Shown in pieces: positions 892-16,079 of a stretch of 42,229 nt of DNA. The notes beneath the pieces are model-generated. The model did no database searches, had not been told where the DNA came from, and worked only from the letters and a program-made list of their open reading frames with translations. The translations under genes were made by a program, and so were the position numbers. Each line of letters starts with the position of its first letter. The first letter of the stretch is position 1. Source of the stretch: a virus (Duplodnaviria; Heunggongvirae; Uroviricota; Caudoviricetes); the IMG/VR virus record IMGVR_UViG_2718217897_000004; one strand, 5' to 3'.

Positions 892-981
892 GGAGAGATG
901 CCGGAGCGGCTGAACGGACCGGTCTCGAAAACCGGAGTGGGGGCAACTCCACCGGGGGTTCAAATCCCCCTCTCTCCGCCA
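892..981 (+). tRNA. serU: tRNA-Ser (anticodon CGA), prophage attachment site
   Basis: 90-nt sequence GGAGAGATGCCGGAGCGG...CTCGAAA...GGTTCAAATCCCCCTCTCTCCGCCA with long variable arm and anticodon loop containing CGA; integrase gene lies 53 nt downstream. Confidence 0.9.
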
Positions 982-1033: not shown

Positions 1034-2059
1034 TTACTTGGAATATTTTCTTGGAATATTTTCAGGTAACGGGACATCAAGTGTTGGTGAAACTTTAACC
1101 TTCCTGTCATAGATTAGCACTTGCCCTTCGGTTTTGTGACCAGAGAAAAGTTGCTTATCCCGGCTGCTTCCTTCATAGTCTGAAATTCCTTTCGCCTTCA
1201 GATCATGAAAGGTGAAGTCGGTTAAAATACCTGAAATTTTTCCAGCACGATTTCTTGCTTCTACCCACATTTCGTTAAAGCCTTTGTACATATATCGGTT
1301 GCCGTATTGATTGCTGATCACATAGGCAGATTTTGGTAACTGTTTTGCTTTTTCGATCGCTGCCTGTAATCGTGGACTCCATGCTTTTATCTGTTTTTTT
1401 CCGGTTTTCCCTTGCTGGATGAATATCCCGTCGTTTCCAATCTGTTCCCATTTCAGCGATAACACATCGGAAACCCTCGCTGCACACAGATAGGCAATTT
1501 CCATTGCGATAAAAACAGGAAGAGGTGCAACGCTTAATACTTCCTGGTATTCTTTGTCGGTTACATATCGTTCGCGGTTTTTGGCCTTGAATTTACTTAC
1601 ACCTGCACATGGGTTAGCCTTCACGTACCCTCGCTCATACCCCCAACTGTAAACACGGGACATACTGCTTTTTTCATGGTTGGCTTGCGTTTTACTCTGC
1701 TCCCCTCTTTTGTCCATGTATCGACGGATGTGTTCTGGTTTTATGGAATCCGCTGGTACCTTACCGAATACGGCAAGCAACTTTTTTTGATGTTGCAGAT
1801 AATCTTTTTGTGTTCTTGGACTAAGGTCACTGTAATAGGCGCTGGCGAGGAATTTTTCCCACAAGCGACCGAATGTCATTGCACGATCGCGATTATTTAC
1901 AGTTTCCTCATACTTTTTCCATAAAGCAGCTAAACCATCCTTGATGGCGGTTAGTGTGACAGATTCTCTGGATGTTGGTTTCCATACATAACTATATTTA
2001 TTTGGGTATACATTTGGAGGTAATTTTTCGTGTTCAGGATTTTTCCTTCGTCTTCCCAT
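1034..2059 (-). CDS. int: Phage integrase, tyrosine site-specific recombinase
   Basis: 341-aa ORF reading toward the tRNA; typical position and size; stop/start overlap with the upstream excisionase ORF. Confidence 0.88.
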   Translation of the reverse strand: MGRRRKNPEHEKLPPNVYPNKYSYVWKPTSRESVTLTAIKDGLAALWKKYEETVNNRDRAMTFGRLWEKFLASAYYSDLSPRTQKDYLQHQKKLLAVFGKVPADSIKPEHIRRYMDKRGEQSKTQANHEKSSMSRVYSWGYERGYVKANPCAGVSKFKAKNRERYVTDKEYQEVLSVAPLPVFIAMEIAYLCAARVSDVLSLKWEQIGNDGIFIQQGKTGKKQIKAWSPRLQAAIEKAKQLPKSAYVISNQYGNRYMYKGFNEMWVEARNRAGKISGILTDFTFHDLKAKGISDYEGSSRDKQLFSGHKTEGQVLIYDRKVKVSPTLDVPLPENIPRKYSK

Positions 2060-4840: not shown

Positions 4841-5032
4841 TTAAAATTCTGCCGGGATTTCGTTATTATCCTGGTGAATAACTTTATCGACCGGATAACA
4901 GCTGCCTGGAATTTTCTGTTCGGTTGCTGCTGCCATACATTCCTGCATTGTTCTGTGAACACTGACTGCAATATCAACTGGCTCTCCGGAAACAAGAAAA
5001 ACCGTCAGAATAAGTGCAAATACTGGATTCAT
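4841..5032 (-). CDS. Small membrane/secreted protein at the ydfD position (YdfD-like)
   Basis: 63-aa frame from internal ATG MNPVFALILTVFLVSG... with hydrophobic N-terminus; AAGGA SD about 8 nt upstream; 4-nt overlap with dicB stop. Equivalence to YdfD is from position and length only. Confidence 0.45.
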   Translation of the reverse strand: MNPVFALILTVFLVSGEPVDIAVSVHRTMQECMAAATEQKIPGSCYPVDKVIHQDNNEIPAEF

Positions 5033-5217
5033 TGTGCACATCCTTTTGGCATCAGACGTAAACGGGCCAGCATTGAAACAATGCATACTTTATTTAATAA
5101 CTCCCGTTCGTGTTTTCTTTTGTTAATGGCATCTTCAGTAAATACAGGATTACTGATAGTGACACCAATTTCAAAACAACCTTCAGACGTATTAACGTTT
5201 GGTAATAACGTTTTCAT
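5029..5217 (-). CDS. dicB: Cell-division inhibitor DicB
   Basis: 62-aa frame MKTLLPNVNTSEGCFEIGVTISNPVFTEDAINKRK...SMLARLRLMPKGCAQ matches recalled DicB nearly residue for residue. Confidence 0.85.
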   Translation of the reverse strand: MKTLLPNVNTSEGCFEIGVTISNPVFTEDAINKRKHERELLNKVCIVSMLARLRLMPKGCAQ

Positions 5218-5386
5218 TATCGCGCCCTCAACAATGAGTTTTGTGATGCGGTGCCTGGTGCCTCCAGGTGACGTTAACCAGTTAACAATTAACGCCGGAT
5301 ACAGAGAATCCACCCATAACACTGTTTTTGGTTTTAACTGTTCCGCGTGCGCTTAGCCGCATTCACCGCATCACAAAATTCACTTT

Positions 5387-5444
5387 AAAAAGGGCGGCAG
5401 AGCAGTCACGGAGTAAAACTGATACCGCCAAACGTCACCAGAAA
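5387..5444 (-). ncRNA. dicF: DicF small regulatory RNA (53 nt) with 3' U-tract
   Basis: Minus strand reads TTTCTGGTGACGTTTGGCGGTATCAGTTTTACTCCGTGACTGCTCTGCCGCCC followed by TTTTT, which matches recalled DicF; sits immediately upstream of dicB as in Qin. Confidence 0.85.
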
Positions 5445-5784
5445 ATTGATAACAGAGGGCGTTGCAGCGGGGTTATCACTTAAGCGTATGGTCAACCTGA
5501 CAACCCGGTGTCCTCAACGGGGAAGGAATAACCCCGCCATACTTACCGCCGCGCCATTTCGCGGAGTGCCACAACCGGAAGCGCACGGTCGACGAAAATT
5601 TAACGACAGGCTATCTATGAACCAGCTACCTCGCCGTGCGCTTTCGCGTTATGGTCTGACTTTTCATGGAAATATCCTTTCAGTAAACTGTCAGTGCCGG
5701 ATGCTCACCCGTGTCCGGCGCACGCACTCCACCTCACCCGTGGAGAACTCCTTAATTACCAACCTTAGCTTCGTTGGTTAGCTA

Positions 5785-6003
5785 TTAACGCGGGTATGTA
5801 ATCATTCTGGCAATGCTTAATGCCGCTGCTTTTTCCAGATTGGTGATATCCTGCTCCAGAGAGAACAGATTTTCAGCCTGCTTAGCCCTGGCTTCATTAG
5901 CCCATTTCAGATCCTGCGCTGCATTAATTTTCTGGCGCATCCACTCATAAAGTTCATCATCGGTATAGTCTGGCGCGATGATGACAGGTTCTCGTTTCTG
6001 CAT
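5785..6003 (-). CDS. YdfC-like small protein of the dicB operon
   Basis: 72-aa frame from internal ATG (MQKREPVIIAPDYTDDELYEW...) with strong AAGGAG SD 5 nt upstream; same length and position as Qin ydfC. Confidence 0.5.
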   Translation of the reverse strand: MQKREPVIIAPDYTDDELYEWMRQKINAAQDLKWANEARAKQAENLFSLEQDITNLEKAAALSIARMITYPR

Positions 6004-6074
6004 GTCAGCTCCTTGTGGTTCGCATTGCCTGCTTTTAACCACGTCAGGCGAGGTGGTATCCTCTGAGGGGTCTG

Positions 6075-6431
6075 TTACTCGAGAGGAAATTGGTTATGAA
6101 TACAATCAAGTTTTCTTGCCCAGAATGTGGTGGCGAAGTCTTTGACACATCCTTTAAGCCGCAGGGCTCTGACAGTTTCGCGGGAGCCATCTGCAAAAAT
6201 TGTGGTCACCTTGTAACTGAAGATGAGTCCTCGCAGTTCGATGACGAAATCGTTGACAATATCTTCGGTGCACTCACCAGAGACTTTCTGAAATAAAGAC
6301 GCATACCGCTTAGTTACCGCTCTGATAACTCTTACCTGTCCGGCAATGGCGCTGATGTCAATATAAAGCGCCATTGCTGCTTCTTTGCCGATCCCGTGAT
6401 GCCTTCCATTCTGATGTTTGACTTCGCCCAC
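6075..6431 (-). CDS. Hypothetical first gene of the leftward (dicB) operon; alternative to the overlapping plus-strand zinc-ribbon ORF
   Basis: 118-aa frame with GTG start and GAGGA SD; occupies the ydfA/ydfB position but fully overlaps a zinc-ribbon ORF on the other strand, so at most one is likely real over the shared span. Confidence 0.25.
   Translation of the reverse strand: MGEVKHQNGRHHGIGKEAAMALYIDISAIAGQVRVIRAVTKRYASLFQKVSGECTEDIVNDFVIELRGLIFSYKVTTIFADGSRETVRALRLKGCVKDFATTFWARKLDCIHNQFPLE
6096..6296 (+). CDS. Small acidic zinc-ribbon protein (CPECGG...CKNCGH), antisense to the leftward early operon
   Basis: 66-aa frame from ATG 6096 with GAGAGG SD about 9 nt upstream; two CxxC pairs about 25 aa apart; acidic C-terminus. 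Confidence 0.4.
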   Translation: MNTIKFSCPECGGEVFDTSFKPQGSDSFAGAICKNCGHLVTEDESSQFDDEIVDNIFGALTRDFLK

Positions 6432-12005: not shown

Positions 12006-12467
12006 GGTATTAAAAAACGCCCCGTATACAGACGTTGATCGCCTGAGATGTGGGGATAGGGAGTTAGTTAAATAGTTATACAACAATACCTGATTTTATA
12101 TTGAAGCAAGAAATAGGTTGCTACATATTGAATCATGCGCGTGTACGTCAAATATGGGAGGTCATCGTGCTGGTTCTGAAATGTGCGCTGGCTGTTGCGG
12201 CAGTAATGGCAATTTATTGTCTTGTTATCGTTCTTATGAATCACCTCTCTGATTGATTTCATATTGGCGAGGTGATGGGAGTTAAGTAGAATGGCTGCGG
12301 GTGCTTGAGGCTATCTGCCTCGGGCATGAACACCAACGGCAGATAGAGAAAAGCCCCAGTTAACATTACGCGTCCTGCAAGACGTTTAACATTAATCTGA
12401 GGCCCAATCTATGCTTCACAAACGTAGGTTAGCCTCTTACGTGCCGAAAGGCAAGGAGAAGCAGGCT

Positions 12468-12623
12468 ATGAAGCAGCAAAAGGCGATGTTAATCGCCCTG
12501 ATCGTCATCTGTTTAACCGTCATAGTGACGGCACTGGTAACGAGGAAAGACCTCTGCGAGGTACGAATCCGAACCGGCCAGACGGAGGTCGCTGTCTTCA
12601 CAGCTTACGAACCTGAGGAGTAA
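12468..12623 (+). CDS. hok: Hok/Gef-family type I toxin (51 aa)
   Basis: MKQQKAMLIALIVICLTVIVTALVTRKDLCEVRIRTGQTEVAVFTAYEPEE carries the Hok signature LTRK-LCE-R-R-G--EVA-F-AYE; in-frame upstream extension from 12411 resembles a mok-like leader; structured leader and terminator flank it. Confidence 0.8.
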   Translation: MKQQKAMLIALIVICLTVIVTALVTRKDLCEVRIRTGQTEVAVFTAYEPEE

Positions 12624-15769: not shown

Positions 15770-15845
15770 GGCCCTTTAGCTCAGTGGTAAGAGCGAGCGA
15801 CTCATAATCGCCAGGTCGCTGGTTCAAATCCAGCAAGGGCCACCA
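15770..15845 (+). tRNA. tRNA with CAU anticodon, Ile2(LAU)-like (ileX/ileZ-like)
   Basis: 76 nt, acceptor GGCCCTT/AAGGGCC, anticodon loop CTCATAA; resembles recalled ileX. Confidence 0.8.
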
Positions 15846-15846
15846 G

Positions 15847-15923
15847 CCGCCACTAGCTCATCAGGAAAGAGCGTCAACCCTTTAAGTTGAGTGTGCGAGG
15901 TTCGAGTCCCCGGTGGCGATCCA
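15847..15923 (+). tRNA. tRNA-like gene of uncertain isotype (possibly degenerate)
   Basis: Cloverleaf can be drawn but with C1-A72 mismatch, one T-stem mismatch and anticodon loop CCTTTAA (C at position 33; anticodon would be UUU). Confidence 0.4.
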
Positions 15924-15925
15924 GT

Positions 15926-16001
<76 letters not shown>

Positions 16002-16004
16002 TAT

Positions 16005-16079
<75 letters not shown>

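Follow-up and report, generated by a model that had tools for sequence, protein, structure and literature searches.

The described systems closest to the leader considered here are the put RNAs of phage HK022, which promote read-through of terminators by RNA polymerase (PMC9378689), the nut/rrn boxA sites of lambda type, the structured prophage leader RNA STnc100, and the precursor of the small RNA (sRNA) DicF in the dicBF operon of Escherichia coli K-12. DicF has been reported in two forms, one of 53 nucleotides (nt) that is terminated and one of 72 nt that results from read-through and cutting by RNase III (PMC5069750). The subject of this report is the stretch just upstream of DicF, positions 5445-5784 on the minus strand of IMG/VR record IMGVR_UViG_2718217897_000004, a caudoviricete sequence of 42,229 nt that is referred to below, at its full length, as the window. 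An earlier note on this DNA had described the stretch as a leader of about 340 nt without a long minus-strand open reading frame (ORF). What is new here is that the leader ends in a conserved pseudoknotted RNA domain, termed module B below, and that this domain shows a phage-wide tie to the terminators of early operons.

The limits of the leader are well defined. On the downstream side, the Rfam model of DicF (RF00039) matches 5392-5443 on the minus strand with 76.7 bits against a gathering score of 48, and the K-12 annotation together with the alignment places the 53-nt DicF at 5392-5444 on that strand. On the upstream side, the ORF list gives a minus-strand coding sequence of 72 amino acids at 5785..6003; it has no significant Pfam family, and loci homologous to it carry the label 'protein YdfC'. 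Because the 5' end of DicF is at 5444 and the ydfC-like coding sequence ends at 5785, 5445-5784 is exactly the ydfC-dicF spacer. Its counterpart in the Qin prophage of K-12 MG1655 (1649042-1649381) is likewise 340 nt long and is 98% identical; the K-12 DicF precursor represents the same locus, and RefSeq annotates no feature over these K-12 positions. The spacer is matched in 4325 of 5426 complete E. coli genomes (about 80%), with up to eight copies per genome. The longest minus-strand frame inside it has 36 amino acids (5476..5586), followed by frames of 29 (5406..5495) and 23 (5691..5762), which bears out the description of a leader without a long ORF on that strand. The observation in that form is already known from K-12, and the absence of an ORF over 340 nt is unremarkable by itself; what is remarkable is the conservation of the spacer.

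That conservation is unevenly distributed. The spacer is a mosaic in which the 5' 200 nt (module A, 5587..5784, minus strand) vary among prophages, whereas the 3' 126 nt (module B, 5461..5586, minus strand) are conserved. Module B, numbered here from nt 1 at window position 5586, scores 153.7 bits with our covariance model R1. It is enclosed by a closing helix, P0 (5568-5575/5461-5468; nt 12-19/119-126), and contains the hairpin P1 (5560-5564/5549-5553; nt 23-27/34-38), the hairpin P2 with its variable loop (5532-5536/5518-5522; nt 51-55/65-69) and the 9-bp helix P3 (5498-5506/5470-5478; nt 81-89/109-117). An H-type pseudoknot, GUAUGG/CCAUAC (5537-5542/5486-5491; nt 45-50/96-101), joins the loop of P3 to the junction between P1 and P2, and a boxA-like GUGCGCU (5580-5586) forms the 5' end of the module.

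Module B is a real, conserved pseudoknotted RNA structure. About 60 distinct copies were gathered by pattern scans of viral and genome collections together with BLAST. In the MAFFT alignment 95.4% of the cells of module B pair, as opposed to 33-52% when the partners are slid by one to three columns, and ten pairs are compensatory as opposed to 3.8 in shuffles, with none of the 500 shuffles attaining ten. The model-based alignment of 48 distinct sequences gives 96.6% pairing versus 34-54% for partners slid in the same way, with compensatory change in 13 of 33 pairs versus 3.3 +/- 1.2 in shuffles (again 0 of 500). The individual changes can be followed by eye: P3 reads GGGUAACCA/UGGUUACCC in Izhakiella versus GGGUUGUCA/UGACAACCC in other copies, the copy of phage P1 pairs GUUGCCA/UGGCAAC in the P3 helix and GCAUGG/CCAUGC in the pseudoknot, and the stem of P2 occurs as CGGGG/CCCCG, CUGGG/CCCAG, CAGGUG/CACCUG and CGAGG/CCUCG. 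Helix P1 shows no compensatory change in the alignments. RNAalifold recovers P0, P1 and P3 unaided, and single-sequence folds of the types represented by phage cdtI, locus L047 and Erwinia recover all of P0 to P3. A permissive Rfam 15 cmscan of 5200-6100 (E up to 10) placed no family on the bases of module B; it returned only DicF, a weak STnc100 match downstream of DicF and a chance mascRNA (E = 9.1).

The same alignments bear on the view that there is no RNA element here at all, and that the conservation comes from a plus-strand ORF, a decayed gene or a site at the DNA level. The only long frame of the spacer is indeed antisense, 111 amino acids with 15 arginines at 5446..5781 on the plus strand. 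In the window it covers the whole spacer, and PGAP as well as several phage records place short antisense 'hypothetical proteins' on the region. Among 21 distinct spacers of at least 92% identity, however, the frame is unbroken in 11 and broken in 10, owing to common 1-nt indels that fall within hairpin P2. No Pfam family matches the frame, the substitutions compensate within helices, and the DicF strand carries 80 G-U cells and pairs at 96.6% versus 93.2% for the opposite strand. The frame is rejected as a gene, as it is not kept among homologues and has no Pfam family, and the earlier note was right to call it a shadow; the view without an RNA element is accordingly very improbable. Two related records may be mentioned. 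In E. coli ETEC1706 (locus L003), the two matched parts of the spacer are separated by about 546 additional bases, over which a 456-nt antisense 'hypothetical protein' is annotated (L003 2636-3091), and cdtI has one of the same size over its module B/terminator region (L005 2545-3000). Both are probably annotation artefacts over structured RNA.

Nor did the sense strand yield a gene. A 13-codon micro-ORF, MKSQTITRKRTAR (5626..5667, minus strand), has a plausible ribosome-binding site, and its ATG at 5667 is CTG in K-12 and most homologues; it is judged not to be real. The open frames of this strand shift with common 1-nt indels, and no conserved small minus-strand ORF with a ribosome-binding site was found across the homologues. 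The reading of the spacer as a leader therefore stands, and its assignment to the non-coding part of the dicBF transcript is supported. The earlier note had further expected the leader to carry processing sites, or perhaps additional small RNAs or micro-ORFs. A candidate RNase E site was found (see below), additional small RNAs or micro-ORFs were not demonstrated, and the picture of a mere carrier of processing sites gives way to one in which the last third is a pseudoknotted domain with covariation.

Module A is of a different character. According to both an 11-mer coverage map and alignments, the sequence upstream of module B takes many alternative forms, even in close E. coli prophages. In the window, minus-strand hairpins are predicted at 5727-5745, 5696-5719 (GCCGGA...UCCGGC), 5653-5669 (degenerate in the window, CCCUGAAAAGUCAGGG in relatives), 5639-5648 (CGC-GAAA-GCG) and 5603-5637. 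RNAalifold finds no covariation in module A (term +0.08, zero pairs with compensatory change), and inspection by eye adds a single compensatory change in a CCCUGA/UCAGGG hairpin (CUCUGA/UCAGAG). Plausible as the hairpins are, conserved structure in module A was rejected for want of RNAalifold covariation. Some elements recur in these variable leaders. The hairpin GCCUGACGUGGUUAAAAGCAGGC, found just upstream of ydfC in the window (6027-6049, minus strand), is also present in L003, L140, L154 and many viral contigs; it recurs as a recombination joint between differing leader modules, and it alternates with CCCUGAAAAGUCAGGG at one position ahead of the CGAAAG hairpin. In loci L151, L154, L161 and L068, two minihelices resembling the T arm and acceptor of a tRNA, GGCAGGUUCAAUUCCUGCCACC and GGUCCGUUCAAUUCGGACACC, lie about 20-110 nt upstream of module B, in a region similar to a stretch annotated as tRNA-Arg in Salmonella phage SPC32H.

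Module B travels independently of the rest of the spacer. In a BLAST comparison with phage genomes, the 3' third alone (query about 210-332) matches unrelated contexts, including phages cdtI, Ayreon and 2H10, Stx2c phages, an 'Actinobacillus' phage, P1 and P7. It is present in about 80% of complete E. coli genomes, and also in Salmonella phages and lambdoid phages that have no annotated N gene. Known hosts of the module are Escherichia, Shigella, Citrobacter, Trabulsiella, Erwinia tracheiphila, Izhakiella, P1-like phages and Salmonella phage F1055. Its occurrence without ydfC, and beside DicF-like hairpins that lack the DicF seed, points to some role of module B beyond the release of DicF. The 'Actinobacillus' phage, vB_Apl-pPE4 (L006), is nearly identical to E. 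coli sequences around module B and carries a tandem duplication of the unit formed by the 3' strand of P0, the linker and the DicF-like hairpin (about 2600-2760); in the Shigella flexneri locus L140, the DicF hairpin has decayed.

In many temperate phages module B stands at the head of early operons, and it is coupled to terminators. In P1 and P7 it overlaps a feature labelled 'dicF-like region', which follows closely on the C1-controlled Pban promoter; in P1 it begins about 20-25 nt past the P1ban transcription start. The promoter that follows cI precedes it by about 270 nt in Ayreon, cdtI and 2H10 (about 272 nt in Ayreon, where the promoter is annotated), in F1055 module B sits between the repressor gene and a recombination gene, and in prophages of the K-12 type it comes after ydfA, ydfB and ydfC. 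In the viable phages cdtI, Ayreon, 2H10, Tritos and HannyBb, the operon that it heads extends for 4-5 kb to xis/int, and no N antiterminator is annotated in any of the five. The corresponding operon of the window encodes a helix-turn-helix repressor, YdfC, DicB, DUF1482, an ExoVIII-like exonuclease and an integrase; the Pfam search found no N family in it. A 39-amino-acid ORF annotated in the Ayreon leader was considered as a small N-like protein and rejected, having a TTG start and no arginine-rich motif.

The coupling to terminators was assessed with a scan based on RNAfold, including a random-position control, as the loop limit of 8 nt in the standard terminator scan makes it miss hairpins of the DicF type. 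A hairpin of -10 kcal/mol or stronger with a U-run follows module B within 125 nt in 60 of 61 distinct downstream contexts, at offsets of 37-119 nt (median 70), whereas only 103 of 600 positions drawn at random from the same loci have one. Inspection sorts these hairpins into about ten types of unrelated sequence, one of which is DicF; its 3' hairpin and U-run (5392..5444, minus strand) are the intrinsic terminator that follows module B in the window. The cdtI/Ayreon type has two tandem terminators, both located after the leftward early promoter and ahead of the first gene. In Trabulsiella (L149), Erwinia tracheiphila (L151) and Izhakiella (L154), the hairpin equivalent to DicF, 40-120 nt past module B, is enlarged and holds a strong Shine-Dalgarno sequence and ATG (GGAGGAG..AUAAUGUUCUACCG, peptide MFYRGTA...); this frame crosses the 3' arm of the terminator and is not conserved beyond about eight codons.

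Between module B and DicF lies a single-stranded, A/U-rich linker of 16 nt, GCCCUCUGUUAUCAAU (5445..5460, minus strand), which is directly 3' of P0 and ends at the 5' end of DicF. RNase E prefers the sequence RN|WUU, and since the DicF 5' boundary (CAAU|UUUC, 5445/5444) falls within this linker and fits that preference, the linker is a likely RNase E site as judged from its sequence. Could the purpose of module B then be processing and stability? It might act as a scaffold whose fold presents the linker to RNase E and so fixes the 5' end of DicF or of a DicF-like RNA, and the fold might also shield the 3' end of the upstream mRNA from exonucleases after the cut. The RNase E dependence of the DicF 5' end (PMC5069750), the position of the cut site directly 3' of P0, and the near-constant company of a DicF-like hairpin are all consistent with this. 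Against it, the DicF 'seed' between module B and the hairpin is unconserved; because it is almost absent in the P1 and cdtI types, there is often little sRNA body to release. Moreover, a plain structural barrier needs neither invariant loop and junction nucleotides nor a pseudoknot, and the tandem terminators ahead of the first gene are left unexplained. Both parts of the scaffold proposal, presentation of the linker and shielding of the mRNA, are therefore considered unlikely.

Downstream of DicF, an STnc100-like domain (5239-5380, minus strand; RF02076, 38.8 bits, below the gathering score of 47) separates dicF from dicB. It is closed by a perfect 15-bp duplex (5364-5378/5239-5253) that starts 14 nt past DicF. 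The cut that gives the 72-nt form would lie 19 nt past DicF, within this duplex, which is why the predicted helix is a likely RNase III site for that form. The first gene past the terminator is dicB itself (5029..5217, minus strand; Pfam PF05358 DicB, E = 5.7e-40). Read-through of the DicF terminator must occur, because both the 53-nt and the 72-nt DicF have been reported and dicB lies beyond that terminator.

Module B combines a multi-helix junction, a pseudoknot and invariant unpaired nucleotides with an intrinsic terminator 37-119 nt further on. This architecture is typical of transcriptional riboswitches, with which module B shares a conserved aptamer-like fold ahead of a terminator. It might thus be an attenuator that responds to a ligand or protein, the state of the aptamer setting whether the next terminator forms. 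Riboswitches of this kind rely on mutually exclusive antiterminator and terminator pairings, however, and the minimum-free-energy folds of six types contain no conserved pairing of that sort. In the folds of cdtI, L047, Erwinia and ETEC1706, module B (wholly or in part) and the terminator are independent domains; in the P1-type fold the terminator hairpin alone stands out; and in the window's own fold the GGCGGUAAG junction pairs with the 3' arm of the terminator, a pairing absent from the five other folds. The linker and the 5' arm of the terminator vary in sequence and length, the second terminator of cdtI-type phages would lie beyond the control of a single switch, and no Rfam riboswitch is matched. 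We regard an attenuator as quite unlikely.

The resemblance to the put RNAs is one of circumstance. Like putL and putR of HK022, module B is a cis-encoded leader RNA of a repressor-controlled early operon, in phages without N, and precedes the first terminators; in phage P1 it lies almost at +1, as putL does in HK022. The put RNAs, which influence RNA polymerase in cis by way of its beta' zinc-binding domain, are about 70 nt long with two stem-loops, whereas module B has 126 nt, four helices and a pseudoknot. An nhmmer profile of putL/putR found HK022 only, among sequences that included the window, K-12, cdtI, Ayreon, 2H10, Tritos, HannyBb, P1 and other loci, and model R1 found no match in HK022 even with its filters off. 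The motifs GCGCGGCGG and ACCAUGCG are shared by putL and module B in reversed order, are both lacking from putR, and were taken as chance. Given the differences in length and fold and the failed sequence and profile tests, module B was rejected as a put RNA.

Lambda-type nut/rrn boxA sites, like module B, occur in early leaders, and a boxA-like GUGCUCU or AUGCUCUUU stands immediately 5' of P0 in several types. The boxA consensus is GYTCTTTAANA (PMC5725501), where the main E. coli type reads GCGCUUCC and the window GCGCUUCCGGU; depending on type, the agreement is partial, at 5-7 of the 10 specified positions. A boxB-like hairpin (CCCUGAAAAGUCAGGG) is present only in module A, about 65 nt upstream of the boxA-like motif (66 in the window, where the hairpin is degenerate). 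Since the motif has no boxB pentaloop hairpin next to it, and neither annotation nor Pfam shows an N gene, module B was rejected as a nut site of lambda type. The RfaH ops element is GGCGGTAGNNTG on the non-template strand; it too was rejected, as GGCGGTAAGTATG of module B matches its first 7 nt only and lacks the conserved G8. The anti-sRNAs AgvB and AsxR of enterohaemorrhagic E. coli (EHEC) are located near PR' and are unrelated.

STnc100 (RF02076) comes closer in layout. Both it and module B are structured prophage leader RNAs with a similar closing helix (UGGUG...CACCA) and a terminator behind them, although the interior of STnc100 differs in sequence and fold and module B does not match the STnc100 model. 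Set beside L161, L154 and L151, the leader of Salmonella phage 118970_sal3 (L162 4108-4302) retains the boxA-like motif, the P0 helix GUUGUGGU...ACCACAAC and the terminator, and has an STnc100-like domain (37.5 bits, E = 1.7e-6) in place of the module B interior. From this sequence comparison, module B and the STnc100-like RNA appear to behave as alternative cassettes in one leader slot. The swap, with its shared closing helix and terminator, would also suit the idea that module B and the terminator hairpin make up a stand-alone RNA of about 200 nt from the early promoter, acting in trans by binding a host protein, as a sponge or in phage-host conflict. Rfam types STnc100 as an sRNA gene, and in phage P1 module B lies near the 5' end of the transcript with a terminator 37 nt later. 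Module B of the K-12 type, by contrast, is internal to a polycistronic mRNA and has no promoter of its own, no such RNA species is reported in the searchable literature, and the RNA would be without a known target or partner. A stand-alone role is judged improbable.

The explanation that we favour, albeit tentatively, is by analogy antitermination: module B may be a leader RNA that acts in cis and allows RNA polymerase to pass the terminator or terminators behind it. It is preferred because the RNA structure is real, because it stands at the head of the early operon and is coupled to terminators, because no other antiterminator was found there, and because read-through occurs. The nascent RNA of module B would fold just before RNA polymerase arrives at the terminator formed by the DicF 3' hairpin and would render the elongation complex resistant to termination, so that transcripts from the repressor-controlled early promoter could proceed into dicB, the exonuclease gene and xis/int. 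DicF would then be a by-product, left by those transcripts that stop at the terminator or released when RNase E cleaves the 5445-5460 linker, and its 72-nt form would stem from the read-through transcripts. The effect on RNA polymerase, suggested by genomic context, is itself possible rather than probable.

Several observations weigh against antitermination. Each early operon of HK022 contains a put site, whereas module B occurs once per phage, with none in the rightward operon; model R1 finds a single copy in the window, and likewise in the whole cdtI genome. Module B of the K-12 type lies roughly 0.75-1 kb from its promoter, behind translated genes. The absence of N is a matter of annotation and Pfam only, and N proteins are highly diverse. 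There are 5'-truncated recombinants, in Shigella flexneri (L140) and phage pPE4 (L006), in which the 5' strands of P0 and P1 have been replaced. The sal3 swap, which replaces the interior of module B and keeps the terminator, implies either that the two cassettes are functional analogues or that the slot tolerates anything. The patterns used for collecting copies were anchored on motifs and fix GCGGCGGUAAG and CAGGYUGRCCAU by design, so that the invariance of GCGGCGGUAAG and CAGGUUGACCAU is partly built in. Finally, covariation in the pseudoknot consists of wobbles and a single compensatory type, U-A replaced by C-G in P1-like copies.

A wider proposal follows from antitermination and is doubtful. 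It holds that module B would represent a new class of processive antiterminators made of RNA alone, which differs in structure from put and acts in cis on E. coli RNA polymerase. It would supply the early antitermination that is missing from N-less lambdoid phages, from the Qin/Rac-type prophages that most E. coli genomes (including K-12) carry, and from the P1 ban operon, with STnc100-like RNAs as an interchangeable second class in the same leader slot. The accessible papers on DicF describe no structured domain upstream of it, and module B is also found without the DicF seed. The searchable literature contains no description of module B, though older work could mention the upstream homology, and a search with its motif strings returned unrelated primer sequences only.

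Some other features of the window deserve brief mention. Between ydfC and the repressor gene, a small zinc-ribbon gene on the plus strand (6090-6296; ECs_2282 family in homologues) runs antisense to the leftward early operon that surrounds it. A tRNA-Ser(CGA) (892-981, plus strand) adjoins the integrase gene (1034-2059, minus strand) and is the likely attachment site. A sok antitoxin RNA at 12299-12473 (plus strand; Rfam RF01794, 113 bits) indicates a hok/sok-type toxin-antitoxin locus inside the prophage, and four phage tRNAs (Met, Lys, Thr, Gly) are clustered at 15770-16079 on the plus strand.

DicF, from the dicBF operon of E. coli K-12, is among the oldest known bacterial small RNAs, and the 126-nt domain adjoining it is unannotated, outside Rfam and unmentioned in the searchable literature. 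Were module B merely a processing scaffold, it would still be a widespread RNA motif that deserves an Rfam entry, if one of modest interest. Should it control read-through, it would explain how dicB and the genes for recombination and excision are expressed from beyond the DicF terminator, how early leftward transcription is completed in lambdoid phages without N protein, and why the P1 ban operon begins with a 'dicF-like region'. It would also provide a second, structurally distinct RNA that modifies RNA polymerase.
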